A stretch of 43,605 bases of DNA from the IMG/VR virus record IMGVR_UViG_3300025162_000081, positions 1 through 43,605 of that record; one strand, 5' to 3'. This stretch comes from a virus. The translations under genes were made by a program, and so were the position numbers. The notes under the pieces are model-generated. The model saw nothing but the letters and a program-made list of their open reading frames with translations. It did no database searches and had not been told where the DNA came from. Positions 3,755 to 31,386 of the stretch are shown piece by piece (position 1 is the first letter of the stretch; each line of letters begins with the position of its first letter).

Positions 3755-3766
3755 ATAAATGCATTT

Positions 3767-4495
3767 TTATTTTTTATAGTTTACTGTGATGTAATTGTTT
3801 ATTTTATCTTCTAAATCTTTATTAATCCATTCAATATAACCGTTTATAATACCTTTTCCAGGATTAAAATTTGGAAATCTTGTGTCATTTACTTTTGGTA
3901 ATTCGTCTCCAATCTTACGACCAATATAATTTTCAATTATTGCTTTTTGATTATTAAAATCTAGTAAAATATCTTCATAGTTTAATACAAGTAAATTATC
4001 TTGATATTTTAACCAACCATCAATATGCATTTTCCATCTATGTATATAATTGTCTGGTTCTATTATAATGTGAGGGTCTGGTGAATATGGTGGCAAAAAT
4101 TGTCGTCCAACATCATCTGGCTTCATAAATATCCAATCTTCAAATTTTGGAAATTTACCTAAATCTTCTGGAAATGGTATAAATTTATAATAACTAACAA
4201 GAACATCTTTTAGATTTCTTTTAAGATAAATAACTTTATATTTATCAAAAACAATATCTAAATATGGTTCCATAAATTCTACTTGATGATGTGATTTACA
4301 TACAATATCTTCTATATAAGAATTAACTACAATATCTTTATAAACTTGATGTTCATAATTAGATAAAGTATAAGGTATAGTATTTATTGGAATAAATCCA
4401 ATGGTACGAAATTGACCAAAATTGTATTGGTTTATAATGTTGATTAGTAGATGTGTACCTGAGCGTTCGTGAGTGATTACTAATATTGGTTTCAT
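3767..4495 (-). CDS. sulfotransferase-family protein
   Basis: 5'-PSB-like P-loop 'THERSGTHLL' near the N-terminus and a 3'-PB-like 'YLKRNLKDVLVSYY' (R-x-x-K-D-x-x-V-S). 242 aa. Confidence 0.5.
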   Translation of the reverse strand: MKPILVITHERSGTHLLINIINQYNFGQFRTIGFIPINTIPYTLSNYEHQVYKDIVVNSYIEDIVCKSHHQVEFMEPYLDIVFDKYKVIYLKRNLKDVLVSYYKFIPFPEDLGKFPKFEDWIFMKPDDVGRQFLPPYSPDPHIIIEPDNYIHRWKMHIDGWLKYQDNLLVLNYEDILLDFNNQKAIIENYIGRKIGDELPKVNDTRFPNFNPGKGIINGYIEWINKDLEDKINNYITVNYKK

Positions 4496-4528: not shown

Positions 4529-5776
4529 TTAAAAATTACAAACTCTAACAGGAGTTAATCTTTGTAATGTAGTATTATCACCCAATTGTCCATAATTATT
4601 AACTCCCCAAGTCCAAACATGTCCATTATAATCTATTGCAGATGCATTATAAACACCTGCTGACAAATAACAAAATGTCTTTTTTGCACCTTGTATTGAC
4701 ACTGGTGTACAAATTGATGATGTAGAATTATTACCCAAATATCCATTAACATTAGAACCCCAGCCCCATATTTGTCCATTATTATCTAAACCAAGAGTAT
4801 AATGAAATTTTCCTGTTGAAATTTGACAAAATGTTTTTTTTGCACCTTTTATTGATACTGGTGTATATCTTGATACCGTTGAGTTGTCTCCCAATTCACC
4901 ATATCCATTAAGACCCCAACACCATATTTGTCCATTTTTATCTATTGCCGATACATTATCATTACCCACTGATATTTGACAAAATGTCTTTTTAGCACCT
5001 TGAATTGATACTGGCGTACATGTACATATTATTGAATTATTACCTAATTGACCATATTTGTTATATCCCCAACCCCAAGCTTGTCCTTTATAATCTATAC
5101 CACTTGAATGATAATGAGTACCAATTGAAATTTGGCAAAATGTTTTTTTGTTACCTTGTATTGATATTGGCGTGCGTTTTGATGTTGTGGAATTATCACC
5201 TAAACAACCAAAATTATTATACCCCCAACCCCATAATATTCCATTTTTATCTATTCCAAATCCCAAATAACTACCTGCTGATATTTGGCAAAATGTTTTT
5301 TTGTTACCTTGTATTGATACAGGTGTACATTTTGATGTTGTGGAATTATTACCTAACATTCCATAATAATTATACCCCCAACCCCATATTTGCCCATTTT
5401 TATCTATTCCAAAAGAATATTGTTCCGAAGAACTTGTGTATACCTTACAAAAAGTTTTTTTAGCACCCTGTATTGATACTGGTATACAAGTTGATACAGT
5501 AGAATTATTACCTAATTGACCTTTTGTATTATACCCCCAAGCCCAAGTTTGTCCACTCTTCAATAATATATTGCCAAATCCAGAACTAATCATCATAGCG
5601 ACCCCCCAAGGTGCTGGTGCTGTATAGACCCAATTACTATAATATCCCATACTTGTGAGCCAAGTTTGAGCAGATAAAGCATTAGGTAAATTGGTATGAA
5701 ATGCTCTATTAACAACAGTTAAAAAAGCAGCATCAGATTTACCAATAGAACGCCAGAAAGAAGGTTGAATTGACAT
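4529..5776 (-). CDS. RCC1 / alpha-tubulin-suppressor-like repeat protein (about 7 repeats)
   Basis: Repeated 'WGWGYN.(Y/K)GQLGNNST.S.CTPVSIQG.KKTFC' units (RCC1 signature G.N..GQLG). The underlying ~150-bp DNA units are near-identical tandem repeats across about 4560..5560. Confidence 0.7.
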   Translation of the reverse strand: MSIQPSFWRSIGKSDAAFLTVVNRAFHTNLPNALSAQTWLTSMGYYSNWVYTAPAPWGVAMMISSGFGNILLKSGQTWAWGYNTKGQLGNNSTVSTCIPVSIQGAKKTFCKVYTSSSEQYSFGIDKNGQIWGWGYNYYGMLGNNSTTSKCTPVSIQGNKKTFCQISAGSYLGFGIDKNGILWGWGYNNFGCLGDNSTTSKRTPISIQGNKKTFCQISIGTHYHSSGIDYKGQAWGWGYNKYGQLGNNSIICTCTPVSIQGAKKTFCQISVGNDNVSAIDKNGQIWCWGLNGYGELGDNSTVSRYTPVSIKGAKKTFCQISTGKFHYTLGLDNNGQIWGWGSNVNGYLGNNSTSSICTPVSIQGAKKTFCYLSAGVYNASAIDYNGHVWTWGVNNYGQLGDNTTLQRLTPVRVCNF

Positions 5777-9745: not shown

Positions 9746-10006
9746 ATGGACAATACAACTAAATGGTATAATTCAAATTATGATTGTTACGGTAATCCAC
9801 TAGGATATATTCAAGATGATATTCAAATAGGGGACACAGTTGAATATGCTTATGCAGATAACCATATGTCTGATGAAAGTGGTAGACCAAAAAGTAAAAG
9901 AGTAACTGTTAAAGTACAAGGTGTATGGGATGGTGAAAAGGCTTGTTTTAATGACAAAAAAAACGTTGTAGTAAGAGCTAAAGCCTGGTTAAAACTTGTT
10001 AAATAA
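9746..10006 (+). CDS. hypothetical protein
   Basis: ORF-track 9701 start is TTG. First ATG 9746 (MDNTTKWYNS..). Confidence 0.4.
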   Translation: MDNTTKWYNSNYDCYGNPLGYIQDDIQIGDTVEYAYADNHMSDESGRPKSKRVTVKVQGVWDGEKACFNDKKNVVVRAKAWLKLVK

Positions 10007-10455
10007 TGGAAAAGGAAATTAAAAGGCTTGAGGAACAGATTGCTAAATGTGATGTTAAATTATCAAATAGTTCTTTTGTTGATAAAGCACCAAAAGATAT
10101 TATTTTAAAAGAACAACAAAAAAAGAAAGACTTTACAGCACAATTAGAAATTATAAGAAAACAATTAGAAAATTCTAAATCAGTTAGTAAAGATTACTAT
10201 GACGATGAAATTTGTCAATTCACAGTTGGCACAACTGTTTCCTATTTTAAGATACCAAGAACAGAAAGAAAAAAAGAATTTCTAATTTCTAAATTAGATA
10301 GTGTAGAAAAAATAAATTGGCATATTCAATATTTACGTGAACAAAAGACTAATATTGAAATATACAGTGAAGAATGGTATAACTTTATTTATAATGAGGA
10401 AATCACATCTAATGAAATAAATGAATTATTTGAAATTTTTAGGAAATTTGTATGA
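10006..10455 (+). CDS. hypothetical coiled-coil protein
   Basis: 149 aa. ATGG/TAATG-type coupling to neighbours. Confidence 0.45.
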   Translation: MEKEIKRLEEQIAKCDVKLSNSSFVDKAPKDIILKEQQKKKDFTAQLEIIRKQLENSKSVSKDYYDDEICQFTVGTTVSYFKIPRTERKKEFLISKLDSVEKINWHIQYLREQKTNIEIYSEEWYNFIYNEEITSNEINELFEIFRKFV

Positions 10456-11240: not shown

Positions 11241-11474
11241 GTGAAAACTTGTAAAAAGATTTCAACTGGAGAGATATTTGAATATGAACAATGTGTTTCT
11301 TATCCTGTATTTGATAGAACTCGAAATAACGGCACAATATATTTTGAATTAATTTCAAAAGGTAAGTTTGTTCTGGGTAAGTATATTGGTGAGGACGAAT
11401 TTTATGATGAATATATTGATATTAAAAAAGAAAGAAGACTTAAATTAGAAAAATTAAATCAAATTCTCCAATAA
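11241..11474 (+). CDS. hypothetical protein (GTG start) ending ..KKERRLKLEKLNQILQ (tail variant)
   Basis: No ATG start; weak. Confidence 0.25.
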   Translation: MKTCKKISTGEIFEYEQCVSYPVFDRTRNNGTIYFELISKGKFVLGKYIGEDEFYDEYIDIKKERRLKLEKLNQILQ

Positions 11475-12397
11475 AACCCTTTATATTTAGTATTTTTTGC
11501 TATCGCCTTTCTTAAGTTTTGAATACATATTTCATTATAATTTTTTATTTCCTTAATATTATTCCAAATCCTAACTATACTTCCTTTTTCGTCTATTTGT
11601 TTAATGTTAGTATATTCTCTCGTATTTAAATTTAATTTTTTAATATTATTCTCAATTTCGGCTTTTTCTAAAAAGTTTAATGAATAATAATAATTTTTAG
11701 CATGCCTACATCTATCTTGTAAAACGAAACTTATAGAACGTGGATTAACATTCATTTCTCTTGAGCATTCTTTTATACTGTTAAATTTTTTTATATAATT
11801 TCCAAACATATCATATTGATATATCTCTATGTTTGTACATTTATTTTTATTATCTCTTATTGGTATATTATTTTCTTTTAATATTTTAGTAATAGTTTCT
11901 CTATCAATTTTTAATTCTATTGATATTTTTTTAATTGATAATTTATTAAAATATAATTCTTTAACTACATCAAGATATTTGCTCCTTTTTAATTTGTATG
12001 CTTTTGATACATTATTTCTATGTTCGTTTGTCCATTTCAATTCTAAATTTGTTGCCGCAAATGCTCTAGAATTATATCCATTTTTATAAGAGTTATATTC
12101 ATCAATATAATACTGTTCTCTTTTTATGCAACTATCACGATCACACTCTTCAATTATTTCAAATATTATATTATCAATTCCATACTTATTGACCGCATTT
12201 TGTAAAGAAGGTGAGTTAGATATATTTTTTGATAGTTTTAAAATATGACTGAGCCATCTTTTATGAAACCCATTTTTATTAGAAGTACTACCAATATAAA
12301 CTTTACCATTATTGTTAATAAAACTTATCTTATATACACCAATACTTTTAGGGAATATTTTTTTATCATTTATCGTATATTTCATTTTATATTTCAT
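11459..12397 (-). CDS. GIY-YIG homing endonuclease with NUMOD1-type C-terminal DNA-binding modules
   Basis: N-terminus IGVYKISFINNNGKVYIGSTSN....R...H is the GIY-YIG motif. C-terminal ..KGFYWRI helix module. Confidence 0.8.
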   Translation of the reverse strand: MKYKMKYTINDKKIFPKSIGVYKISFINNNGKVYIGSTSNKNGFHKRWLSHILKLSKNISNSPSLQNAVNKYGIDNIIFEIIEECDRDSCIKREQYYIDEYNSYKNGYNSRAFAATNLELKWTNEHRNNVSKAYKLKRSKYLDVVKELYFNKLSIKKISIELKIDRETITKILKENNIPIRDNKNKCTNIEIYQYDMFGNYIKKFNSIKECSREMNVNPRSISFVLQDRCRHAKNYYYSLNFLEKAEIENNIKKLNLNTREYTNIKQIDEKGSIVRIWNNIKEIKNYNEICIQNLRKAIAKNTKYKGFYWRI

Positions 12398-16078: not shown

Positions 16079-16358
16079 AATTATGAAATATTTAACTTTA
16101 GAACATTTAGGTACATTACCTACACCAAGATTACTTACTTACTATAAAATAGTTAGAAGGAAAATTAGAAGGCATCAGAATTCATTATATTGTGAGTGTT
16201 GTGGCACACCTGTTTATCAATTATATGGTAAATTAAATACAAAAGAAGAAAATGAAAAATTGAAACTAGAATTTGAAACTGATCTTCATGATAGTGAAAA
16301 CTATCTTGAATCAATAAAAACATTATTAAACACAAGAGAACACGTAAAACGAAAATGA
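16062..16358 (+). CDS. hypothetical protein (CxxC pair)
   Basis: 98 aa. CECCGTP motif. Confidence 0.4.
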   Translation: MKIYIKIMKYLTLEHLGTLPTPRLLTYYKIVRRKIRRHQNSLYCECCGTPVYQLYGKLNTKEENEKLKLEFETDLHDSENYLESIKTLLNTREHVKRK

Positions 16359-17029
16359 AACATTACGATAGTTTTGAGAATATTAAGTACGACCAACTTT
16401 TGTTGGGTGAAGAAATCTGGGCATCAAATAAAATTGATGGTCAGAATTTTTGTGCTAAATATTCACCGAGACAAAAAGAATTTACTATGTTTGGATCTAA
16501 AAATCAAAATGTAGATGAAACAAGTGAGCAATTTGGTAAAGCAGTTTTGTATTTCAAACAAAATATGGCTGATACTCTAAAACAAATCATCATAAACAAT
16601 TCAAAAAAAGGTGGAGTATTTACTGGCGTTGAAGAAATTACAGTATTTTGTGAGTGGTACGGTGAGAACACTTTTAGTGGATTTCATGTGCCTGGCGAAG
16701 AATTAAAATTATGTCTAATAGATGTGTTCTTGAAAAAGAAAGGCTACATTGAACCAAAAATATTCTATAAACTCTTTGATGGCTACAGTAATATTGAAGT
16801 ACCAGAACTCATATATAGTGGCAAACTAACAAAGGATTTCATCAATTCTATTGTGAATAATGATTGGACTAAGCCTGGTTGTTTATATCCAACTGTTAAA
16901 GAAGGTGTAGTTTGTAAACGATCAACTTTAATGAAAGGTCAAAGAATGCCAAAGGCAAAAATAAAAACTGGATGGTGGTTAAATAAATTGACAGAATTAT
17001 ATCCTGATAGATGGAAAGAATTAGAATGA
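16355..17029 (+). CDS. Rnl2-family RNA ligase, nucleotidyltransferase domain only
   Basis: N-terminus aligns with T4 RNA ligase 2 as I recall it: HYDSFENIKYDQL...IWASNKIDGQNFC vs KYSSLENHYNSKF...EWVAREKIHGTNFS (motif I KxxG lysine). Later EEITVFCEWYGE and EGVVCKR (motifs IV/V). 224 aa, so it lacks the Rnl2 C-terminal domain. Confidence 0.65.
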   Translation: MKHYDSFENIKYDQLLLGEEIWASNKIDGQNFCAKYSPRQKEFTMFGSKNQNVDETSEQFGKAVLYFKQNMADTLKQIIINNSKKGGVFTGVEEITVFCEWYGENTFSGFHVPGEELKLCLIDVFLKKKGYIEPKIFYKLFDGYSNIEVPELIYSGKLTKDFINSIVNNDWTKPGCLYPTVKEGVVCKRSTLMKGQRMPKAKIKTGWWLNKLTELYPDRWKELE

Positions 17030-18242
17030 ACTACTAAGTAGTTTCCTTACAAAGATTATACTTTATAAGAACTTTAGATAAATCTAAAGGCTCGTTCATA
17101 GAAGCAAAGTGATTTCCGAACCACCTATTCAATATATTTATGGCTGAATTTAAATCACGGTCTATAATTATGGTGTCTGATAACTGAACTTCCCTATTAC
17201 CAAGACTTATTTTATCTTTAAATAGTTTTCCAGTTAGACAGTTAATTTGTGTTGTCCATTTTTCATCAATTTTCACCAAGTTGGTATTTTTTGCTTGACA
17301 CTTATATGTAAGGAATTGTAGAAACATATTGATATTAGATTGACTAAATGACTTTCTAATACCTTTTTTATTCTCATTCACTCCTTCTGTTGACATTAGC
17401 CTCTTAACTGTTAGATCACCAACTACAATTGTATTGTAGTTCATATTCGATAACTTTTTACTCTGAATATGAAGAGTTTGTTTTATTTGTTCGTTCTTTT
17501 TATGATAACATTTATTTAATGTTTTTTTCAATAATAAGTTTCTATTTGATCCTTTTGTTGTTTTACTCCTTTTGTTTTGTATTTTTGCTATTTGTTTCTG
17601 ATAATAATCATTAATTTTTTTAGATTTATTTTTTAATACAATCATACCACCTTTATTATCTATTCCTGTTCCTAATTTACTTAACCCCAAATCAATAGCA
17701 AGAACTTTAGTTTTAACATTAACATCATTAAAATATTCTATTTTATCGTCAATCACCAAATCACACAACCATTTATGTCTAATAAATTTAATTCTTATTT
17801 CTTTTATTTTTAAATCTTTAATATTTAAATTTGATTTATATTCAAATGGAATTTGATTTAGAAAGAACAATCCTTTTTTTATCATCCATCCTGATTGATT
17901 AAAAGAAATAGTATGAAAATAATTATTTTCTATTTTTCTTGGTGGTTTAGCATTTTTATCTTTTTTTATCAAATTAAAAAATGACCTATAAGATCCATAT
18001 AATTCTGTTGCTATTGTTTGAATTGCCTTTGAATTTAATTTCTTCCAATCTGGATATTCTTCTTTTAATAATGGTAATAAATTATTTAACTTGAATTTAT
18101 CTAAAATTATTTTATCTGTTTCATATTTATCTTGTTGTATATCAAGCAATTTATTCCATATATCTTTACGAATATCAGATAATTCTTGTAATTCAAGAAT
18201 TTGTTCTTTTGATGGAAATAATCTTATTTGATACGTCTTCAT
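17030..18242 (-). mobile_element. IS200/IS605-family tnpB-only (IS1341-like) element; ends not determined
   Basis: TnpB ORF with no adjacent tnpA. Its stop is only 5 nt from the convergent RNA-ligase stop, so any right-end/omega-RNA scaffold must overlap 3' sequence there. Confidence 0.3.
17034..18242 (-). CDS. tnpB: TnpB (IS605 OrfB) RuvC-like RNA-guided-nuclease family protein
   Basis: N-terminus MKTYQIRLFPSKEQ. RuvC-I VLAIDLGLSKLGTG. C-terminal CLTGK...IIDRDLNSAINIL (RuvC-III DRDxNAAxNI). 402 aa. Confidence 0.8.
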   Translation of the reverse strand: MKTYQIRLFPSKEQILELQELSDIRKDIWNKLLDIQQDKYETDKIILDKFKLNNLLPLLKEEYPDWKKLNSKAIQTIATELYGSYRSFFNLIKKDKNAKPPRKIENNYFHTISFNQSGWMIKKGLFFLNQIPFEYKSNLNIKDLKIKEIRIKFIRHKWLCDLVIDDKIEYFNDVNVKTKVLAIDLGLSKLGTGIDNKGGMIVLKNKSKKINDYYQKQIAKIQNKRSKTTKGSNRNLLLKKTLNKCYHKKNEQIKQTLHIQSKKLSNMNYNTIVVGDLTVKRLMSTEGVNENKKGIRKSFSQSNINMFLQFLTYKCQAKNTNLVKIDEKWTTQINCLTGKLFKDKISLGNREVQLSDTIIIDRDLNSAINILNRWFGNHFASMNEPLDLSKVLIKYNLCKETT

Positions 18243-18314
18243 TTTACTTATACAACATTTTTTATACTATTATATATAAATATAATAAAATCAAAAAGGC
18301 TATTTTAGTGTCTT

Positions 18315-18344
18315 TTAACATTATTTAACATTAAATTAACATTA
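18315..18344 (+). repeat. three phased copies of TTAACATTA (spacing 10/11 bp) in the tnpB/NADAR divergent region
   Basis: Same core as the AAATTAACAT x3 array at 12641..12670. Confidence 0.5.
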
Positions 18345-18361
18345 AATATAAACAAATATTA

Positions 18362-18369
18362 TATATTTG
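18362..18369 (+). promoter_or_regulatory. -7 promoter box TATATTTG(TA)
   Basis: 35 nt upstream of ATG 18404. Confidence 0.35.
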
Positions 18370-18403
18370 TATAAATCTTGTAAGCAAACGAATAAAAATA
18401 AAT

Positions 18404-18862
18404 ATGGAAAAGAAATATACATTTTTTTGGAATGGAGTTTTTAGTAACTGGCATAGAGCGATATTCAAAGTGGATGGTGTTACATTTAGTTCTGGGGAAC
18501 AGTACTTCATGTACAAAAAGGCTATTGTGTTTCACGATTTTGACTCTGCAGAAAAGATTATGAATGAAGAACATCCAAGAAGGCAAAAGGCTTTAGGAAA
18601 ATTAGTAAAGAATTTTAACAAAAAAACTTGGGATGATCTTTGTTATGATATAGTTAAGGATGGATTACGTGAAAAGTTTAAGCAAAATCCTGATATGAAA
18701 GAATATCTAATTAGTTGTAAAGACACTATTATTGTTGAAGCATCACCAGAGGATAGAATTTGGGGAATTGGATACGGAGAATGGGAAGCACTTGAAAATA
18801 TTGATGATTGGGGTCAAAATCTGTTAGGTAAAATATGTACTGAATTGGCTAATGAACTATGA
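18404..18862 (+). CDS. NADAR (YbiA/DUF1768) family protein
   Basis: FFWNGVFSNWHRAIFKVDGVTFSSGEQYFMYKKA...HPRRQKALGK...KFKQNPD...IVEASPEDRIWGIGYG is the family signature end to end. Confidence 0.7.
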   Translation: MEKKYTFFWNGVFSNWHRAIFKVDGVTFSSGEQYFMYKKAIVFHDFDSAEKIMNEEHPRRQKALGKLVKNFNKKTWDDLCYDIVKDGLREKFKQNPDMKEYLISCKDTIIVEASPEDRIWGIGYGEWEALENIDDWGQNLLGKICTELANEL

Positions 18863-19077
18863 AAAAATATTTTGTAATTAAAAACCGTGGTTGGGGTGCA
18901 TTAAAAGAAGGAGACGTGGTTGGTATAACCACTAATGAAGAATATGCAAAATCAAGAGTGGAATGGGCAACTTATTACGAAGAAGTTAAAATGCTTGATT
19001 TTCCAGATTCAATTAAAAAGATTAGAAAAAAGAAATTAAAAAAAATAAATAAAAATGGAAAAGAAATTACCAATTGA
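18859..19077 (+). CDS. small hypothetical protein ending ..IKKIRKKKLKKINKNGKEITN (tail variant)
   Basis: 72 aa. Confidence 0.4.
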   Translation: MKKYFVIKNRGWGALKEGDVVGITTNEEYAKSRVEWATYYEEVKMLDFPDSIKKIRKKKLKKINKNGKEITN

Positions 19078-19405
19078 ACTTTTAATCTGTGCTTGTCATA
19101 ACACAGAACATCAACTTATTCTATCACATGAATATGATGAAGATATAAAATTAGATGCTGATGGTAATGAAATGAAGGATGCAAATGGCAAATTTATCTA
19201 CGATAAAAAGTATCCTATTTGTTATGCTCATGTTCATCTTAAAAAACATTATTTTTGGAGTAGACTTAAATATGCTATTAAACATATTTTTGGCTATCAG
19301 TGTAGATATGGAGCTTTTGATGAATTTATTTTTAAGCCAGAAGATGCTCCAAGATTACAGCAGTTAGTTGATCATCTAAATGAACAAATAAAATCAGAAG
19401 AATAA
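19055..19405 (+). CDS. hypothetical protein
   Basis: 116 aa. Confidence 0.4.
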   Translation: MEKKLPIELLICACHNTEHQLILSHEYDEDIKLDADGNEMKDANGKFIYDKKYPICYAHVHLKKHYFWSRLKYAIKHIFGYQCRYGAFDEFIFKPEDAPRLQQLVDHLNEQIKSEE

Positions 19406-19467
19406 ATAATAAATTTGGTGGTCTCATATAAAAGCAGTATCTTTGTTCTACACTTAAAAACAATAAT

Positions 19468-19818
19468 ATGAACTACTCAGAGATCAAAATGTTAGAAGGT
19501 TCAATCAAAAATGAACTTCAGAAAAGGTTTCCTTATTCATCTACAAAGGTTTCCACATTAGGAGGTGAAAGTAAAGCAACAATCTTTTTCACTTTTAGTC
19601 TTGACAAATCAAGCACTTGGGAAAATGGCATCATGCAGAACAGTCGTTATTTTATCTTCAGTGTAACATACAAAGGTGAAGTAGAATGTATCAGTAAGTC
19701 AGTTAAAGAAGTGAACGTAAGAAAATTCACAATTGAAAATACTGAAAAGTTATTGATCAAGATTTCTAAAGTATTGGATGAAGTTAAAACTAAGGCAAAT
19801 AAAAAAGTTACTGCATAA
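19468..19818 (+). CDS. hypothetical protein
   Basis: 116 aa. Confidence 0.4.
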   Translation: MNYSEIKMLEGSIKNELQKRFPYSSTKVSTLGGESKATIFFTFSLDKSSTWENGIMQNSRYFIFSVTYKGEVECISKSVKEVNVRKFTIENTEKLLIKISKVLDEVKTKANKKVTA

Positions 19819-19823
19819 TGAAA

Positions 19824-20279
19824 TTAAAATTTAGAGAGCAATTTTTGTTCTCTAAATTTTTTCATAGAATTTGAGATTTTATTTTTTTGTTCCTCACTAA
19901 GTTTAGTATAAACTCTTCCATTTCTTGCAGATTGTATATGTTCAACTGACTTCTTTTTACCCTTTGATGCCTTAGACATTTTTTCTCTTGTCTCTACTGA
20001 AAATATCCTACCAGTGCAACCTTTTCTTATTTTTTCTTTTCTATCATTTGATAACTTGGTACCTGTTAATGTTTTTGATATTTTTTCTTTAGTTTCATCA
20101 CTTAATGGTCCTTTTAGTACACCCTTTAATCTTTTTGACATTTTTTCTTTTGATTCTTCACTCATTTTTTGACCCTTATGTGACTCTGAATTTTTTAATG
20201 TGTGTTCAATTGATTTTTTCTTACCCTTTAATGCAGCAGACATCTTCAATTTTGTTTCTTCAGTATGATGATATCCCAT
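19824..20279 (-). CDS. free-standing NUMOD3-repeat protein (about 5 repeats)
   Basis: EETKLKMSAALKGKKKS / SEESKEKMSKRLKG / SDETKEKISKTLTG / SVETREKMSKASKGKKKS / SEEQKNKISNSMKK. Confidence 0.5.
   Translation of the reverse strand: MGYHHTEETKLKMSAALKGKKKSIEHTLKNSESHKGQKMSEESKEKMSKRLKGVLKGPLSDETKEKISKTLTGTKLSNDRKEKIRKGCTGRIFSVETREKMSKASKGKKKSVEHIQSARNGRVYTKLSEEQKNKISNSMKKFREQKLLSKF
19829..19866 (+). terminator. candidate intrinsic terminator TTAGAGA-gcaatttttgt-TCTCTAA + T-tract
   Basis: Follows stop 19818. Overlaps the last codons of the convergent minus gene. Confidence 0.3.
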
Positions 20280-20355
20280 TATTGTATCGCCACCAATAGT
20301 TAAATTATAACTTGCATACTTATTAAAAATATTTTTTTATTTGCTAAATTTTTTG

Positions 20356-20363
20356 TATATTTG
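20356..20363 (+). promoter_or_regulatory. -7 promoter box TATATTTG
   Basis: 24 nt upstream of ATG 20387. Confidence 0.35.
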
Positions 20364-20386
20364 CACTAACAATAAAAAAATAAATT

Positions 20387-20860
20387 ATGGATATAGGATC
20401 AGGGAAAGAGTACCCATCAAATGCTCTTAGTAATTTCGCACCACATCCATTTATATTTGATGGTGTAGATGTTTCTTCAATGGAAGGACTCCTACAGTCG
20501 TTTAAATATAAGAATTTTGATATGCAGAAAGAAATATGTAAACTCGTGGGGAAAGCAGCAAAATTCAAAGGTAAAAAGAAAAACTGGTACACAGATCAGA
20601 AGCTATATTGGAATGGTGCTGTATATGAAAGAGAATCAAAGGAATATCAATCTTTGTTAGATAGAGCCTTCGATGCTTTGGCTGAGAACACAGGATTTCA
20701 AAAAGCATTAATTGCATCTGGAAAATCAGTATTAACACACGAAATTGGAAAATCAAAAGAAAGTGAAACTGTTTTAACAAAAAGAGAATTCATTTCAAGG
20801 CTAAACAAAATTCGTGAGAGACTATTCAAAGAAAAAACTGGATTTAAATTTTCAGAATAA
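20387..20860 (+). CDS. divergent NADAR-like protein (tentative)
   Basis: N-terminus ALSNFAPHPFIFDGVDVSSMEGLLQSFKY fits the NADAR N-terminal block (LSNF.P.PF..DG..Y.S.EH.FQA.KF). C-terminal half is not clearly alignable. Confidence 0.35.
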   Translation: MDIGSGKEYPSNALSNFAPHPFIFDGVDVSSMEGLLQSFKYKNFDMQKEICKLVGKAAKFKGKKKNWYTDQKLYWNGAVYERESKEYQSLLDRAFDALAENTGFQKALIASGKSVLTHEIGKSKESETVLTKREFISRLNKIRERLFKEKTGFKFSE

Positions 20861-20863
20861 AAT

Positions 20864-20896
20864 AAAAAAAGAGGACTTTTCAGTCCTCTTTTTTTA
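20864..20896. terminator. bidirectional intrinsic terminator AAAAAAAGAGGACT-tttc-AGTCCTCTTTTTTTAT
   Basis: Perfect 7-bp GC-containing stem with flanking A and T tracts, between convergent genes. Confidence 0.6.
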
Positions 20897-21359
20897 TATT
20901 TGCCTTTGTCCATTCTTCTGAAATCTTTCTTAAAGATGTACCTTTTACTAATTTATGATCAAAAAATCTAAACCTTAAAGGTATATGTTTTAATACTTTA
21001 ATAACCTTATATGGTAGGTTGACATTTTCTTTTATCCATTCAAATATTTCTTCATGTTCTTTTGGTATAATAAAAATTCTTTCACCTTCTGCATCTGATT
21101 GTAATATACCAAATCTTTCTTCTAACTCTTCATAGGCACAGGACAAACCGTCTCCAAAATATTTTAATCTCCAGTCACGTTGTGTAATACCTATAAATTT
21201 TTCAAATAATTGCCAAAAGAAAACATGGTATTGCATTGCTCTTTCACTGTGTTGTTCAGGTAAAGGCAGATTATTTTTATCTGATTTATCTAATAGATAT
21301 TTACTTGCATAAACTCTAATTTTTATTATGTAATAATCTTTACAATTAAATTTTTTCAT
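20880..21359 (-). CDS. hypothetical protein
   Basis: 159 aa. Confidence 0.4.
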   Translation of the reverse strand: MKKFNCKDYYIIKIRVYASKYLLDKSDKNNLPLPEQHSERAMQYHVFFWQLFEKFIGITQRDWRLKYFGDGLSCAYEELEERFGILQSDAEGERIFIIPKEHEEIFEWIKENVNLPYKVIKVLKHIPLRFRFFDHKLVKGTSLRKISEEWTKANIKKED

Positions 21360-22081
21360 TCTACTAATTTTTTAAGAACTGAATATTCATTTTTTTTCTT
21401 ATCAAGCATTTCAATCATTAACTGTAGATGATCATTATTTTTAGTACTGAACAAATGCCTATTGTTTTCTGTATGTTCTATAAATTTCCAAGCATCTTCT
21501 ATTAAATCATTTCTAAATTTTGAAAATTGCTCAACTTTATGTTTTGGTATATAAACATCTTTTGAAGATAGAAATCTAAGTCTATCAGGAAGAAAACCAT
21601 CTCTCCCACCATGATCACAAATAACTCTCATAATTTCTAGAACATCTGCATCTTGTACAATTTGTTTATTTATACTCCAATCACCATGTTTTTCAATAAA
21701 TCTGGAAACATGATATGAATATTCTTCATTTAATCCATTAGATCCCAAATAACTATAACACAAATCTGCGCTATCACTTTCCCAAAGATCAATACCATTT
21801 CCTTGTCTGCCAGAATCGTGAAATGCAATTGCGTGTCTTATTCCGTTAAAATCAACATCTAATCCAAGATCATTGTAGAACCTTGCCATAAGTTCTGAAA
21901 ACAACACAGCTCTTGTAATATGTCTTCTACCGTGAATACCATAAGGGTCGAATGTAGCTTCGTGATTCTGGTAATGTGGTAATATATGTATTTCTAAATC
22001 TTTTGTAAAATTATTCCAACCTTCAATATTTCTAATCATTCTTTTTATTATTTTTATCTTCTGCTCTATATTTTTCTGCAA
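21356..22081 (-). CDS. HD-domain phosphohydrolase-like protein
   Basis: HGRRH...AFHDSGR (H...HD) metal-binding pattern. 241 aa. Confidence 0.5.
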   Translation of the reverse strand: MQKNIEQKIKIIKRMIRNIEGWNNFTKDLEIHILPHYQNHEATFDPYGIHGRRHITRAVLFSELMARFYNDLGLDVDFNGIRHAIAFHDSGRQGNGIDLWESDSADLCYSYLGSNGLNEEYSYHVSRFIEKHGDWSINKQIVQDADVLEIMRVICDHGGRDGFLPDRLRFLSSKDVYIPKHKVEQFSKFRNDLIEDAWKFIEHTENNRHLFSTKNNDHLQLMIEMLDKKKNEYSVLKKLVE

Positions 22082-23715: not shown

Positions 23716-23862
23716 AAGATAGTGGCGTTTGATAAGACTAAGGCATTGGATTTAAATAATGGAATAACATTATGTGAAAAGTGTCACAAATTATTTCATA
23801 AAAATTATGGTAAAAAAGAAAATAATATAGAACAATTAAATGAATTTTTAAATGAAAAATAA
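23716..23862 (+). pseudogene. C-terminal remnant of an HNH endonuclease (..ALDLNNGITLCEKCHKLFHKNYG..)
   Basis: Frame contains D..N...LC..CH...H, the second half of the HNH motif. The N-terminal H/GG half is missing, and the upstream ATG at 23689 is out of frame and terminates after 17 codons. Confidence 0.4.
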
Positions 23863-24865
23863 ATTAGAAGAAATAGGTTTTTATACATTAAGTGACAAAA
23901 GAGCAGAAAATGTTTCTATGGAATCACAAATGAAAAGATGTGAAATGATCATAACAGAGTACTGCAATTTTTCTTGCGGTTATTGTAGAGGGTTAAAACC
24001 TGAAATATACGGCAATAGAAAGATAAAAGAATTATCTTTTGATGAAGTATGTAGGAATATTGATCTTTGGTGTGAAAACCAGCCATTAGAAAATATTAGG
24101 TTTTCTGGTGGTGAGCCAACATTACATAAAAATATTGTTGAGATAATATCTTATGCTAAAAGTAAAGGTATTAAAAGAATTGCAATTTCAACAAATGGTA
24201 GCAATAAAATGGAGTTATATACAGCATTAATTAACGCTGGATGTAATGACTTTTCTATATCATTAGATGCTTGTTGTTCTGATGATGGTGATAAAATGGC
24301 AGGTAATATTAATGGTTCTTGGAATGTTGTTGTAAAAAATATAGAAGAAATATCAAAATTAACTTACGTTACTGTTGGTGTTGTTTTAACACCAGATAAT
24401 ATTGATAAAACTATTGATACTATTAGATTTGCGCATAAGTTAGGTGTTGCAGATATTAGAATTATCAGCGCAGCACAATGGAACCAGCCAATACCAAGAT
24501 TAAATGAGGTTGAAGATTATATTAAAGATTCTCATCCAATCTTAAAATATAGAATTAACCACTTCTCAGAAGGAATTAATGTGAGAGGTCTTGTTGATAG
24601 CGACAGTAAAAAGTGCGCTATTGTGTTGGATGATAGCATAATAGGAGGAGAATATTTCTTTCCTTGCGTAATTTACATGAGAGAACAAGGTGAATCTATC
24701 GGAAAAGTTGGTCCAAATATGAGAAAAGAAAGATTTGAATGGTTTAAAACTCATAACACTCACACAGATGATATTTGCAAAAATAATTGTCTTGATGTTT
24801 GTCGGGATATAAATAATAAGATAAGAGATACAAATAAAAAATTAGCAGAATTTTACAATGATTAG
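23852..24865 (+). CDS. radical SAM enzyme (MoaA/viperin-like core, Cys-rich C-terminal extension)
   Basis: CNFSCGYC (CxxxCxxC) at residues about 38-45. GGEPTL SAM-binding motif. ISTNGS..ISLD barrel strands. C-terminal CxnC..CxxxC. Confidence 0.75.
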   Translation: MKNKLEEIGFYTLSDKRAENVSMESQMKRCEMIITEYCNFSCGYCRGLKPEIYGNRKIKELSFDEVCRNIDLWCENQPLENIRFSGGEPTLHKNIVEIISYAKSKGIKRIAISTNGSNKMELYTALINAGCNDFSISLDACCSDDGDKMAGNINGSWNVVVKNIEEISKLTYVTVGVVLTPDNIDKTIDTIRFAHKLGVADIRIISAAQWNQPIPRLNEVEDYIKDSHPILKYRINHFSEGINVRGLVDSDSKKCAIVLDDSIIGGEYFFPCVIYMREQGESIGKVGPNMRKERFEWFKTHNTHTDDICKNNCLDVCRDINNKIRDTNKKLAEFYND

Positions 24866-25133
24866 AAGAATACCAGCAGTCCAATTTACTTATGATCTAT
24901 GGAGAGCAGGTTCACTCAATGAATTAGGAATAAGGCATAGAGAATGGGCAATAACTGAAAGAAGTAGATTCATAAGGAAAATGGCTATTGGTTTTACTGA
25001 AGGTGAAAAACTACTGCTTAGAAGAAAAGAAAATCATATTGCAGTAATGTTTTATGATACAAATTTGAAACACTTTTGGACACACTTAACACTTAGAGAA
25101 TTTTACATATGTTTTCCAGAGTTACAAAAATAA
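24858..25133 (+). CDS. hypothetical protein (middle gene of radical-SAM/GGDEF operon)
   Basis: Start overlaps radical-SAM stop by 8 nt. Its stop overlaps the GGDEF start. Confidence 0.4.
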   Translation: MIRRIPAVQFTYDLWRAGSLNELGIRHREWAITERSRFIRKMAIGFTEGEKLLLRRKENHIAVMFYDTNLKHFWTHLTLREFYICFPELQK

Positions 25134-25534
25134 TAAGAGAATTTAAGGAATGGAAGTATCTTGCTTATCACGACTCATTAACTGGGTTATTAAACAGGAA
25201 CTGGCTTAATGCTTATAAAATGAGCATTAAGAATCCTTACGTTTATTTTATTGATATAAATAACTTGACTAAAATTAACAAAATGGGTCATACTGTTGGT
25301 GATATGCACATTATAAATGTTGTTAAGCACATTCCACAAGTTGATGGAGACTATTTAGTTCGTTATGCTGGAGATGAATTTATTTTATTCTCTAATTCTG
25401 AAAATTTAATTAGTACCAACAAATTATATTCTGTTGGTATGTCAATAAATATAGGTGATTTATCAAACTCTATTATGGAAGCTGACATTAAAATGATAGA
25501 ATCTAAAAAAAGATTTAAGAATGAGAACATTTAA
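25109..25534 (+). CDS. stand-alone minimal GGDEF-domain protein (signature AGDEF)
   Basis: YHDSLTGLLNR (DxLTGLxNR). YFIDINNLTKINKMGHTVGD (substrate and metal site). RYAGDEF in place of RYGGEEF. C-terminal EADIKMIESKKRFKN. No sensor or I-site region. 141 aa. Confidence 0.6.
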   Translation: MFSRVTKIIREFKEWKYLAYHDSLTGLLNRNWLNAYKMSIKNPYVYFIDINNLTKINKMGHTVGDMHIINVVKHIPQVDGDYLVRYAGDEFILFSNSENLISTNKLYSVGMSINIGDLSNSIMEADIKMIESKKRFKNENI

Positions 25535-27063: not shown

Positions 27064-27621
27064 ATGAAGATATATACAAAAACTGGTGATAAAGGCACAA
27101 CATCTTTAATAGGAGGAACTAGAGTATCTAAATATGATGAAAGAGTTGAAGCATATGGAACTTTAGATGAATTGAATTCTTTTTTAGGTTTAATAAGAGA
27201 TTATGATATTGATCAAAAAACTAAAAATCTAATTATTGAAATTCAAGATAGAATATTTACAGCAGAATCTTTGCTTGCGGTAGATCCAGAAAAAATAGTA
27301 AGAAATCTACCAGTGTTATTAGAATATGATATTGAGCTTTTAGAAATTGAAATTGATAAGATGAATGTTGAATTGCCAGAAATATCAAATTTCATCCTAC
27401 CTGGAGGACATAAGGTCGTATCAATTTGTCACATAGCAAGAACTATATGTAGAAGGGGTGAGAGATGTGTCATAAAACTAGTAGAGCATCAACCAAAAAC
27501 AATACAGTCAGAAATGATACTTAAATACTTAAATAGACTATCTGACTTTTTATTTGTGTTATCAAGAAAACTTTCAAAGGATTTTAATGCTACTGAGACT
27601 CCTTGGTCTCCGAAGTATTAA
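27064..27621 (+). CDS. ATP:cob(I)alamin adenosyltransferase, PduO/MMAB type
   Basis: MKIYTKTGDKGTTSL.., ..FILPGG.., ..LNRLSDFLF.. all match the PduO-type family (compare human MMAB KIYTKTGDKG, FILPSGG, LNRLSDYLF as I recall them). Confidence 0.85.
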   Translation: MKIYTKTGDKGTTSLIGGTRVSKYDERVEAYGTLDELNSFLGLIRDYDIDQKTKNLIIEIQDRIFTAESLLAVDPEKIVRNLPVLLEYDIELLEIEIDKMNVELPEISNFILPGGHKVVSICHIARTICRRGERCVIKLVEHQPKTIQSEMILKYLNRLSDFLFVLSRKLSKDFNATETPWSPKY

Positions 27622-28967: not shown

Positions 28968-29699
28968 TCATAAATTGTATTTATCATTCTCTTTTTTAAG
29001 ATTATATCTCTCAAATTGTTTAGGATATTTTTCTTGTAACTCTTTAACTTTATCTTCGTCTCCATTATTTATCAAATAATCTATGAAATCATCCCCATTT
29101 TCATCTTTAAAATTCCAATCTGCTCCCAACTCTATTAATTTATCTACAACACTATAATAATTATAAACTTTATATCTAATATGTGTAGCAAACATTAAAG
29201 CTGTTCTTTTAGTATAGGATTGCGCATCTAAATCCGCACCATATTTTAATAATAATTCAATGACTTTAGTTACTTTTGATGGTGTAAATTTCAAATTAGT
29301 AATGGCATTCATTATTGGAGTTTTATTTACACCATTTCTTACATTTGGATCTGCGCCTTGATTCAATAAGTCTTCTATCTTATCCAAATTTAAATTTCTT
29401 ATAGCTCCAAATAATTCTTTACTATTAACTGTATTTGACTCAGATATGTTATTTTTTTTTATAAAATTCTTATGAACTAAATATTTCAAATAATTATACA
29501 TCTCTTTAGAATTTGTTAAATCTACACCATAGTTATTAAATAAATAATGATTTATAAATTCTAAAACATGATCCTCAGTCACTGATTCATGTAAATCTTT
29601 AATATTTTTAATGGATTTTTTATATAGCGCGGGAAATAAACTTGTTATAAGTTTAAGATTAACGTTAATTCCCTCATATACTTTAAATTTAGTTATCAT
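28968..29699 (-). CDS. ankyrin-repeat protein with family termini (MITKFKVYEGI.. / ..KYNL)
   Basis: About 4 ankyrin repeats (..GADPNVRNGVNKTPIMNAI.., ..LLKYGADLDAQSYTKRTALMFAT.., ..LIELGADWNFKDENGDDFIDYLI..). Confidence 0.65.
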   Translation of the reverse strand: MITKFKVYEGINVNLKLITSLFPALYKKSIKNIKDLHESVTEDHVLEFINHYLFNNYGVDLTNSKEMYNYLKYLVHKNFIKKNNISESNTVNSKELFGAIRNLNLDKIEDLLNQGADPNVRNGVNKTPIMNAITNLKFTPSKVTKVIELLLKYGADLDAQSYTKRTALMFATHIRYKVYNYYSVVDKLIELGADWNFKDENGDDFIDYLINNGDEDKVKELQEKYPKQFERYNLKKENDKYNL

Positions 29700-30595: not shown

Positions 30596-30739
30596 ATGAA
30601 AATTCAAAAAACATTCACAATTGAAGAAGATATTTCTAAGGAATTTGATAAAATATCAAAAGAGAAATCAATTAATAAATCTTTATTTTTAGAAAATGCA
30701 ATGAAAGATTTTATTGAAAAAAATAAGAAAGAAAAATGA
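30596..30739 (+). CDS. ribbon-helix-helix small protein, 47 aa, directly upstream of a GIY-YIG gene
   Basis: Own translation: MKIQKTFTIEEDISKEFDKISKEKSINKSLFLENAMKDFIEKNKKEK. Stop TGA overlaps endonuclease ATG (ATGA). Confidence 0.45.
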   Translation: MKIQKTFTIEEDISKEFDKISKEKSINKSLFLENAMKDFIEKNKKEK

Positions 30740-31386
30740 TAGGTATATACAAAATTACAAATATTATAAATAATAAATGTTATATAGGTTCATCAGTAGA
30801 TATTGTAGGTAGATGGTATCATCATAAAACAACATTAAAATTTAATAAACATCATTCAATAAAATTACAAAGATCCTATAATAAATACGGTTCAGATAAT
30901 TTTAAGTATGAAATTGTAGAAGAATGTGAAACAGAATTATTATTAATTAGAGAAGAATACTATATCAACTTATTTGATTGTTATAATAATGGATATAATT
31001 TTTCAATACCATCGAATTGTGTTATGCTTGGCAGACATCATAGTGAAGAAACAAAAGAAATACTTAGAGAAAAAAGTAAGGGTAATAAAAATAGATTAAA
31101 TATGACATTTAGTGATGAATCTAAAAAGAAAATAAGTGACAAATTAAAAGGACGGAAATTGTCAGATGAAACTAAACTAAATATGAGCAAAGGACAGAAG
31201 AATAGAATTTATTCAGACGAAGACTTGAAAAAAATTACTGAAATAAATAAATCTAGAATAGGAATACCGTTATCAGATGAGCATAAACTTAAATTAAGTT
31301 TAGCAAAAGTAGGAAAGAAACAAAGTCCAGAAACTATTGCAAAAAGAGTACAAAAAAACACTGGTCAAAAAAGAAAAAAAACTTAA
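30736..31386 (+). CDS. GIY-YIG homing endonuclease with NUMOD3 repeats
   Basis: MIGIYKITNIINNKCYIGSSVDIVGRWYHH (GIY..YIG..R..H). Several SEETK/SDESKKKIS/SDETK NUMOD3 repeats in the C-terminal half. Confidence 0.8.
   Translation: MIGIYKITNIINNKCYIGSSVDIVGRWYHHKTTLKFNKHHSIKLQRSYNKYGSDNFKYEIVEECETELLLIREEYYINLFDCYNNGYNFSIPSNCVMLGRHHSEETKEILREKSKGNKNRLNMTFSDESKKKISDKLKGRKLSDETKLNMSKGQKNRIYSDEDLKKITEINKSRIGIPLSDEHKLKLSLAKVGKKQSPETIAKRVQKNTGQKRKKT

Follow-up and report, generated by a model that had tools for sequence, protein, structure and literature searches.

Why does a phage genome carry two NADAR genes in close proximity, and do their products protect phage DNA against ADP-ribosylation? The genes lie in a window of 43,605 nucleotides, the whole stretch of viral DNA that was analysed here (record IMGVR_UViG_3300025162_000081). 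The original prediction had placed a complete NADAR protein at 18404..18862 (ORF1) and a divergent one at 20387..20860 (ORF2), and had proposed both as candidate anti-DarT factors. Both ORFs are found at exactly these positions (Table 1), and the proposed function is supported by homology, as the family of ORF2 contains the T4 protein AdfN, a proven antagonist of DarTG1 (PMC11825919, PMC11125620). Judged from the sequence, two stand-alone N-glycohydrolases of the NADAR superfamily, from different families, are encoded in a conserved block of small genes of early type: ORF2 is the counterpart of T4 gp30.3 (AdfN), and ORF1 is a Glu-type NADAR that most resembles AdfN-Bas60. The best overall explanation, which we consider probable, is that the two NADARs remove ADP-ribose from the bases of phage DNA, and the locus can be regarded as a well-supported yet unremarkable further instance of a counter-defence that is already known.

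Table 1. Features at the two-NADAR locus; positions refer to the window.
Feature	Position	Strand	Evidence or remark
RNA ligase gene	16355..17029	+	PF09414, Pfam 4.9e-9
TnpB insertion	17033..18391		separates RNA ligase from ORF1 in the window
ORF1, predicted stand-alone Glu-type NADAR ADP-ribosyl N-glycohydrolase, 152 aa	18404..18862	+	sequence and structure model
Three small ORFs, function not assigned	18859..19818	+	between the NADAR genes, co-oriented
Small ORF, 72 aa	18859..19077	+	start overlaps ORF1 stop as ATGA
Small ORF, 116 aa	19055..19405	+	ORF list
Small ORF, 116 aa	19468..19818	+	ORF list
ORF2, predicted phage-type (gp30.3/AdfN) His-type NADAR, 157 aa	20387..20860	+	sequence and structure model
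Intrinsic-terminator-like hairpin	20862..20897	bidirectional	terminator scan, both strands; sequence read directly

The complete NADAR/YbiA signature expected in ORF1 was recovered by two profile models, each above its cut-off. ORF1 matches Pfam NADAR (PF08719) with an E value of 4.4e-45 over model positions 10 to 162 of 163 (154 bits; cut-off 35.1 bits), and TIGR02464 with 141.8 bits (cut-off 73.7). TIGR02464 is a domain-level model that is named "riboflavin biosynthesis intermediates N-glycosidase". Searches of PDB sequences returned 8bau (5e-13) and 2b3w (3e-9). The AF2 model of ORF1 (pLDDT 97, pTM 0.90) is predicted to have the NADAR/YbiA alpha+beta fold and gave the same two structures in Foldseek, 8bau (E 2.8e-11, TM 0.88) and 2b3w (E 4.4e-8, TM 0.81), with no other significant match. 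These are PnNADAR with bound ADP-ribose and E. coli YbiA, respectively, and their fold is common to both ORFs. All of the PnNADAR residues E43, K50, W89, E125, D130 and W133 are kept in ORF1, as E32, K39, W76, E112, D117 and W120, while Lys66 is found at R79 and Cys80 at the pyrophosphate-contacting R93; E112 lies within the motif VEASPEDRIWGIG. Across 16 members of the ORF1 clade, E32, K39, W76, D117 and W120 are invariant.

ORF1 is 41% identical to AdfN-Bas60 (E 7e-32), 34% to PnNADAR and 29% to E. coli YbiA. AdfN-Bas60 is bas60_0111 of Escherichia phage PaulScherrer, the NADAR of a phi92-like Justusliebigvirus. The two proteins have the same Glu/Lys/Glu/Asp catalytic set, both belong to a NADAR group that is neither DarT-associated nor K-12-YbiA-like, and both are stand-alone proteins of large myovirus-type genomes. 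They differ in that ORF1 is shorter (152 against 183 aa), is without the insertion that AdfN-Bas60 carries between its first strands and has Trp120 where AdfN-Bas60 has Tyr. Among 185,579 bacterial and archaeal species genomes, the closest matches to ORF1 show 38 to 52% identity and are spread over phyla, and relatives with 59 to 94% identity are on phage or uncultured contigs. In a tree, ORF1 falls apart from chromosomal Bacteroidota NADARs and E. coli YbiA, in a separate group of uncultured-phage NADARs. The grouping with YbiA enzymes of the host lineage, which would have spoken against the original proposal, was not seen in the species-genome matches, the phage-borne relatives or the tree. 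Recent capture of a host YbiA as the origin of ORF1 is unsupported by the species-genome matches and the tree.

ORF2 had been read as matching the N-terminal NADAR block only, and this reading has to be revised. It matches PF08010 (Phage_30_3) with an E value of 3.4e-55 over model positions 2 to 138 of 138, and it aligns end to end with T4 gp30.3 (40% identity over 149 aa, E 1e-27 to 1e-31). Since ORF2 is related to this family across its entire length, the anti-DarT proposal stands. T4 gp30.3 is AdfN (anti-DarT factor NADAR), of the PF08010 "phage NADAR" family, and ORF2 is a full-length member. At 152 aa in T4 and 157 aa here, both phage-type proteins have a core-only NADAR fold, which the model predicts to be complete in ORF2. 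PDB sequence searches with ORF2 or with its profile gave chance matches alone, so that the relationship required profile-profile and fold comparison. E33 and K40 align with T4 E36 and K43 and are invariant in alignments of 12 and 28 sequences; H118 aligns with T4 H123, is invariant in one alignment and is at least 90% conserved in another. The catalytic residues are conserved in both ORFs: E32, K39, E112 and D117 in ORF1 and E33, K40 and His118 in ORF2. ORF2 and T4 gp30.3 have His where YbiA-type enzymes have Glu and DarG1 NADARs have Asp; relative to PnNADAR, ORF2 has His for E125 and lacks the D130/W133 loop, and an 8-residue deletion follows H118, as in T4 gp30.3. In the model, the C-terminal helix is intact at residues 132 to 151. 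It aligns with the T4 C terminus, and the RB69 allele, which is inactive, has it truncated. There are more than 3,200 ORF2-type genes, on contigs that reach 643 kb, and this clade is phage-borne like that of ORF1.

Neither ORF can be identified with DarG1, the BC4488-family DarTG1 antitoxin (PDB 8BAT). The Asp at the E125 position is absent (Glu in ORF1, His in ORF2), both proteins are core-only without the N-terminal beta-beta-alpha DNA-binding extension, and there is no adjacent DarT. ORF1 gave no match to 8bat, and no PADLOC DarG model matched in the window.

The window genome is that of a large tailed phage with 26% GC, and it appears to be distant DNA-level kin of the Lak megaphages; the link is about 66 to 67% DNA identity in one gene. 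The standard genetic code is used: TAG closes just 5 of 54 ORFs of at least 100 aa, and TAG readthrough gains little. Lak-like stop-codon recoding was considered for both NADAR genes and rejected, as TAG does act as a stop, if rarely, and both ORFs are independent of it (ORF1 ends in TGA and ORF2 in TAA, and the upstream in-frame stop is TAA in both). The related phage L008 has counterparts of ORF1 and ORF2 in the same order. The three small ORFs between them are syntenic with L008 10618-11590, with order kept and 85.6% DNA identity; they gave no match in Pfam or PADLOC, and their PHROG matches are to families of unknown function alone (e.g., phrog_3308, 3e-10). L008 has an additional 58-aa ORF directly downstream of its ORF1 counterpart, a position that varies between relatives. 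Ancestrally, the RNA ligase gene lay immediately upstream of ORF1, and in L008 the gap between ligase and NADAR is 38 nt. Purifying selection is evident from dN/dS values of 0.11 to 0.15 across ORF1 and ORF2 (0.11 for ORF1 against its L008 orthologue). The hairpin, a 16-bp stem with runs of A and T on its flanks, lies 2 nt past the ORF2 stop and between ORF2 and a convergent ORF (20880..21359, minus strand). The Bacteroidota-type promoter TTTG..TAnnTTTG, considered as a possible hint to the host, was not enriched upstream of the two genes (7 seen against 5.85 expected), sigma-70-like sites were fewer than in the shuffled expectation, and the window gave no matches when scanned for tRNAs and against Rfam.

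What such proteins can do is known from published work, and here the emphasis of the original prediction, a clear ORF1 and a divergent ORF2, is reversed, as it is the family of ORF2 that has direct genetic and biochemical anti-DarT proof. T4 AdfN strips ADP-ribose from DarT1-modified DNA in vitro (PMC11825919), which was independently confirmed (PMC11125620). Resistance of T4 to DarTG1 requires AdfN, AdfN suffices to rescue RB69, and the protein is impaired by E36A and K43A (PMC11825919). AdfN-Bas60 on its own neutralises DarT1 and rescues three phages (PMC11825919). Guanine-ADP-ribose on DNA and RNA is hydrolysed by all four NADAR families tested (PMC11125620, PMC11833690, PMC12945103). We therefore regard it as very likely that each ORF is an active base-ADP-ribose hydrolase with activity on guanine-ADP-ribose.

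In the mechanism that we propose, a DarT1-type (or pierisin/ScARP-like) ADP-ribosyltransferase of the host would place ADP-ribose on guanine N2 of the phage DNA after infection, which would block replication and transcription. Both NADARs would use conserved Lys, Trp and basic residues to bind the ADP-ribose. The conserved Glu (E32 or E33) and a second catalytic residue (E112 in ORF1, H118 in ORF2) would serve to cut the ribose-base N-glycosidic bond. Free ADP-ribose would be released and the DNA would again be unmodified, so that both enzymes would serve as orphan "antitoxins". Counter-defence against a DNA-ADP-ribosylating system is probably the role of both proteins, and likelier that of ORF2 than of ORF1. 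Against this role stand the lack of ADP-ribosyltransferase genes, DarT included, in the window and around the genes of relatives, the TIGR02464 match of ORF1 and its Cys80 in place of PnNADAR R93. AdfN-T4 is fully effective only in T-even infection and gives no rescue from DarT1 in uninfected cells (PMC11825919, PMC11125620), and a T-even-specific cofactor is suspected; outside its own kind of phage, a NADAR of the T4 type may therefore depend on a partner. ORF2, whose activity is a predicted one, resides in a 26% GC non-T-even phage and, unlike T4 gp30.3, its neighbours do not include 30.2, 30.4 or alt. As E. coli YbiA and the T4 NADAR are active in vitro but unprotective in vivo, homology of this kind leaves the physiological substrate unfixed. 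That substrate is less certain for ORF1 than for ORF2.

The two enzymes may instead divide the work, with ORF2 reversing guanine-ADP-ribose on DNA (anti-DarT1) and ORF1 acting on another physiological substrate: cytidine-ADP-ribose, tRNA, rRNA or mRNA that is ADP-ribosylated by RNA-targeting transferases, or soluble ADP-ribose derivatives from host immune signalling or RNA repair. Cytidine-ADP-ribose is removed by the Glu-type ScNADAR and AqNADAR and by YbiA-type enzymes, but not by the His-type T4 NADAR, the Asp-type DarG1s or E. coli NADAR (PMC12945103), and the split between Glu112 in ORF1 and His118 in ORF2 fits this division, as does the use of RNA guanine-ADP-ribose as a substrate by every family tested (PMC11833690). 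Iyer et al. also favour soluble ADP-ribose derivatives or RNA-repair by-products as what phage NADARs mostly act on (PMC9503650), and the window contains a cREC_REC RNA-end-processing domain besides the ancestral ligase neighbour. However, the ligase is absent near three ORF1 relatives (53 to 60% identity), which lie amid small unknown ORFs or replication genes, and in Lak-C1 the ligase and NADAR genes are distant from each other. We rejected the adjacency as evidence for RNA repair, as it is confined to the window phage and a close relative and absent elsewhere in the ORF1 clade. Moreover, AdfN-Bas60, the nearest tested relative of ORF1, neutralises DarT1, and we consider this division of labour unlikely.

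That ORF1 is an auxiliary metabolic gene, a YbiA-type N-glycosidase that clears reactive riboflavin-pathway intermediates and has no role in defence, seems highly improbable. The TIGR02464 score is above the cut-off and some phage homologues are annotated as YbiA-like or as GTP cyclohydrolase II, but E. coli YbiA itself hydrolyses guanine-ADP-ribose (PMC11125620), so the name of the model is compatible with activity on nucleic acids. We rejected the K-12 YbiA class for ORF1, which lies far from YbiA in the tree, is less identical to it than to AdfN-Bas60 and has no fitting gene context: riboflavin genes are absent both from the window and from the flanks of relatives, no rib, dinG or ybiB genes lie near ORF1, the eukaryotic or LexA-operon context of PnNADAR and YbiA is absent, and the clade is phage-borne amid early-type small genes. 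Very doubtful, too, is that one or both NADARs serve ADP-ribosylation machinery of the phage itself, as the antitoxin or immunity partner of a phage transferase (a module like YarT-YbiA or DarT-NADAR that would serve in superinfection exclusion) or as the eraser by which Alt/Mod-like host-modifying transferases are kept in check. NADARs are known antitoxins of DarT1 and YarT (PMC11543638, PMC11125620), T4 gene 30.3 is about 3 kb from alt, the small ORFs beside ORF1 are uncharacterised, and ORF1 matches PADLOC PDC-M42C, a candidate defence-system component (E 1.2e-39). Its match to the NCBIfam model "NADAR family anti-phage protein" (NF053876) is weak, however, with a score of 45 far under the cut-off of 240; neither the window nor the flanking genes of relatives yielded a DarT (DUF4433) or other ADP-ribosyltransferase in Pfam scans, and the ORF just downstream of ORF1 differs between relatives.

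Counter-defence by removal of base ADP-ribose thus remains our preferred reading. It would carry the AdfN counter-defence, which experiments have until now defined in coliphages, over to an uncultured Lak-type lineage of very large, low-GC phages. One genome retains two NADARs, one T4-type (His) and the other Bas60-like (Glu), with purifying selection on both, which suggests that modifying nucleic acids with ADP-ribose is a significant defence in the host community. The two form a natural pair for asking whether the Glu/His difference sets the substrate range (guanine versus cytidine, DNA versus RNA), and could help to show whether a T4-type AdfN needs a phage cofactor. A more tentative possibility is that the paired Glu112 and His118 NADARs form a broad-spectrum "eraser" module of two enzymes, one that would be recurrent among large phages. 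In such a module, ORF2 might handle DarT1-type guanine-ADP-ribose on DNA and ORF1 might handle cytidine-ADP-ribose and/or RNA-linked ADP-ribose from other host transferases; if true, the pair could reverse more kinds of base ADP-ribosylation than one of the enzymes alone. A third NADAR paralogue was sought in the window and not found, and L008 has two ORF2 paralogues. An ORF1-type gene lies within 10 kb of an ORF2-type gene in 6 of 80 viral loci, with the two adjacent in one of them.

Two NADAR-family genes, ORF1 and ORF2, lie in the window at exactly the coordinates that the original prediction had given them. The ORF1 product is a classic NADAR domain, with a PF08719 match over nearly the full model length (E 4.4e-45, positions 10-162 of 163) and a TIGR02464 score well above the cut-off (142 bits versus 74). 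This bears out the complete signature claimed for it, and searches of PDB sequences returned PnNADAR (8BAU; 5e-13) and E. coli YbiA (2B3W; 3e-9). AlphaFold predicts the fold with very high confidence (pLDDT 97, pTM 0.90), and in the PDB the model significantly matches only ADP-ribose-bound PnNADAR (TM 0.88) and YbiA (TM 0.81). Residue roles in PnNADAR have been defined by structure and mutagenesis (Schuller et al., PMC11543638). The ORF1 equivalents are E32 (E43), K39 (K50), W76 (W89), E112 (E125), D117 (D130) and W120 (W133), and all six are invariant in the 16 clade members compared. Two phosphate-contacting arginines are substituted (Lys66 at R79, Cys80 at R93). With a Glu at the E125 position, ORF1 falls in the Glu-type families and not with the Asp-type DarG1 or the His-type phage family.

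Among one genome per species from 185,579 bacterial and archaeal species, we found 569 bacterial relatives of ORF1, and the best of these, spread across Bacteroidota, Bacillota, Myxococcota, Actinomycetota and Proteobacteria, are only 38-52% identical. The top match lies on a 15 kb MAG contig of 30% GC that is crowded with small, unassigned ORFs. Uncultured contigs carry proteins 59-94% identical to ORF1; all three contigs inspected are phage-like, and one is T4-like (Gp23, gp32, DNA polymerase B). In a neighbour-joining tree, ORF1 clusters with short NADARs of uncultured contigs; YbiA, the Lak-C1 NADAR and the chromosomal NADARs of Bacteroidota fall elsewhere. The closest experimentally tested protein is AdfN-Bas60, which we identified as bas60_0111 of phage PaulScherrer (41% identity, E 7e-32), ahead of PnNADAR (34%) and E. 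coli YbiA (29%). The scattered bacterial matches, the phage-like relatives and the tree position indicate that ORF1 falls outside the metabolic YbiA enzymes of a host lineage, a grouping that would have told against the original prediction.

ORF2 was predicted to match the N-terminal NADAR block only. This holds for BLASTP against ORF1, which aligns just 34 residues (E 0.027), but not at the family level. ORF2 matches Phage_30_3 (PF08010), the family of T4 gene 30.3, over its full length (E 3.4e-55, positions 2-138 of 138), and hhalign of the two families pairs ORF2 12-117 with ORF1 11-111 (probability 94%, E 1.5e-7). A NADAR-type PADLOC model matches ORF2 13-117, and one database protein (P0239) bears both Pfam labels, PF08719 and PF08010. 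Judged from these matches, the families of ORF1 and ORF2 are homologous well past the N-terminal block. PDB sequence searches with ORF2 or its family profile found nothing. The concern that ORF2 might prove unrelated on full-length alignment is answered by its 40% identity to T4 30.3 over 149 residues, in which E33 and K40 align exactly with T4 E36 and K43, and H118 with T4 H123. A histidine in place of E125 is a trait of the "phage NADARs" (PMC11543638, PMC12945103). ORF2 also shares with T4 30.3 an 8-residue deletion after this histidine, and its C-terminal helix is intact. ORF2 thus shows every sequence and structural feature of the gp30.3/AdfN family that could be assessed here.

T4 gp30.3 was renamed AdfN, for "anti-DarT factor NADAR", by Johannesman et al. 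(PMC11825919). T4 needs AdfN to resist DarTG1, and AdfN alone is enough to rescue RB69, whose own allele, without the last 15 residues, is defective. In vitro, AdfN strips ADP-ribose off DarT1-modified DNA, and its function depends on E36 and K43; AdfN-Bas60 needed no further phage factors to neutralise DarT1 in E. coli, and it rescued three unrelated phages (PMC11825919). Guanine-ADP-ribose hydrolysis by gp30.3 was shown independently by Cihlova et al. (PMC11125620). ORF2 belongs to the family of the T4 protein, while ORF1, which also has the features of Glu-type NADARs, resembles AdfN-Bas60. DarG1 proteins differ from both ORFs in their Asp residue, N-terminal extension and adjacent DarT. 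A putative DarT1-like host defence would place ADP-ribose on phage nucleic acid, and the two proteins would act as orphan, antitoxin-like erasers that remove it. This reading is the best supported because all four NADAR families cleave the N-glycosidic bond that joins ADP-ribose to N2 of guanine, both in DNA and in RNA (PMC11543638, PMC11125620, PMC11833690, PMC12945103). Each ORF very probably encodes an active base-ADP-ribose hydrolase. That counter-defence against DNA ADP-ribosylation is the selected role seems somewhat favoured, more firmly for ORF2 than for ORF1. A caveat is that AdfN-T4 is fully active only in T-even infection (PMC11825919, PMC11125620), and NADAR activity in vitro is no guarantee of protection in vivo.

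It is also possible that ORF1 acts on a different substrate from ORF2. Cytidine-ADP-ribose is removed by the Glu-type ScNADAR, sponge AqNADAR and YbiA-type enzymes and not by His-type T4 NADAR, Asp-type DarG1s or E. coli NADAR (PMC12945103), and Iyer et al. favoured soluble ADP-ribose derivatives or RNA-repair by-products as substrates of phage NADARs (PMC9503650). The adjacency of RNA ligase and NADAR genes in the related phage would be consistent with a different substrate, but it is not kept in the ORF1 clade. NADARs also leave Tpt1-type phosphate-end adducts untouched (PMC11833690). A metabolic riboflavin role, suggested by the name of TIGR02464, is opposed by phylogeny and gene context. 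A further, unlikely alternative is that the NADARs are partners of a phage-encoded ADP-ribosyltransferase or part of a defence-type module. A PADLOC PDC-M42C match points to such a module; however, Pfam scans of essentially all window ORFs revealed no ADP-ribosyltransferase, DarT, macrodomain or NAD-salvage gene.

Features of the NADAR locus and related genes in the window
Feature	Coordinates	Strand	Remarks
TnpB insertion, 1.36 kb	17033..18391 (tnpB 17034..18242)	-	exactly between RNA ligase and ORF1
ORF1	18404..18862	+	152 aa, TGA stop
Three small ORFs between the NADAR genes	18859..19818	+	order kept in related phage
NUMOD3-only ORF, 151 aa	19824..20279	-	NUMOD3 repeats alone, without nuclease domain; upstream of ORF2
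ORF2	20387..20860	+	157 aa, TAA stop
Inverted segment 3' of ORF2	20861..21360		159-aa ORF 20880..21359 (-)
Other GIY-YIG/NUMOD genes, at least three	11459..12397, 30736..31386, 37972..38742		

Purifying selection acts on both NADAR genes (dN/dS 0.11 and 0.145, versus 0.10 for the RNA ligase gene). On an 85.9 kb contig of a related phage (ENA ERZ27297473, including stretches L007 and L008), one strand carries, in order, RNA ligase, a NADAR that shares 80% identity with ORF1, a run of five small ORFs, another two ORFs and a 30.3 gene whose product is 88.5% identical to ORF2. The window differs by three changes. The TnpB insertion, encoding a 402-aa protein (HTH_OrfB_IS605, OrfB_IS605, Cas12f1-like TNB), is absent from L008, where ligase and NADAR are 38 nt apart. 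The stops of tnpB and the ligase gene are 4 nt apart, so a right end or omega-RNA, if there is one, would have to be inside the tnpB 3' end; the insertion has no Rfam match. The NUMOD3 ORF, which looks like a homing-endonuclease remnant and has a 207-aa version in strain variants, stands in place of three small ORFs of L008. The inverted segment is 68% identical to L008 13309..13825, and its breakpoint lies at a strong bidirectional terminator hairpin directly 3' of ORF2. No family could be detected for the small ORFs between the NADAR genes. The first of them overlaps the stop of ORF1 (ATGA), and motifs rich in Cys and His occur in a 116-aa ORF (19055..19405).

An ENA metagenome contig matches the window at 99.995% identity. 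Prevotella Lak megaphages are the window's only DNA-level relatives in the phage collection, with about 66-67% identity across the gene for RNA ligase (16355..17029). Because Lak phages recode TAG, we checked the genetic code. TAG terminates 5 of 54 ORFs of at least 100 aa under the standard code, and read-through gains little coding length; TAA bounds both NADAR ORFs upstream, and neither relies on TAG.

T4 gp30.3/AdfN-type and Glu-type NADARs are already known kinds, and the two ORFs are further members. Their pairing is recurrent, not a local rule: of 80 IMG/VR loci that hold an ORF2-type gene, six also carry an ORF1-type NADAR no more than 10 kb away, and one of these, from a 376 kb contig, has the two side by side. 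The spacing is about 1.5 kb in the window and about 2.1 kb in L008. AdfN-type duplication also seems recurrent, as one of the 80 loci has 30.3 in tandem (L131 9191..10459) and the related phage has two paralogues about 79 kb apart (L007 10001..10474 and L008 12579..13052; 77% and 88.5% identical to ORF2). That a lineage of very large, uncultured phages keeps a His-type and a Glu-type NADAR together makes the idea of complementary substrate ranges testable.

Elsewhere in the window, a cREC_REC (cyclic-phosphate-processing receiver) domain protein (38727..39095, +) and a stand-alone ValRS C-terminal tRNA-binding arm (10006..10455, +) hint, with the RNA ligase, at a group of genes for RNA repair or tRNA-related functions. 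An 803-aa protein (34998..37409, +) has major-vault-protein domains (MVP_shoulder E 1.7e-26, Vault_3, SPFH/Band_7), a set unusual in phage. There are also an RCC1-repeat protein (4529..5776, -), a radical SAM enzyme (23852..24865), a small GGDEF-domain protein (25109..25534), a Cob(I)alamin adenosyltransferase-like protein (27064..27621) and an ankyrin-repeat protein (28968..29699). Such eukaryote-like and signalling domains are typical of very large phages. A glycosyltransferase cluster (GT2, GT8, GT9-like) with a sulfotransferase-domain protein (650..4495, -) may have a role in glycan or DNA modification.
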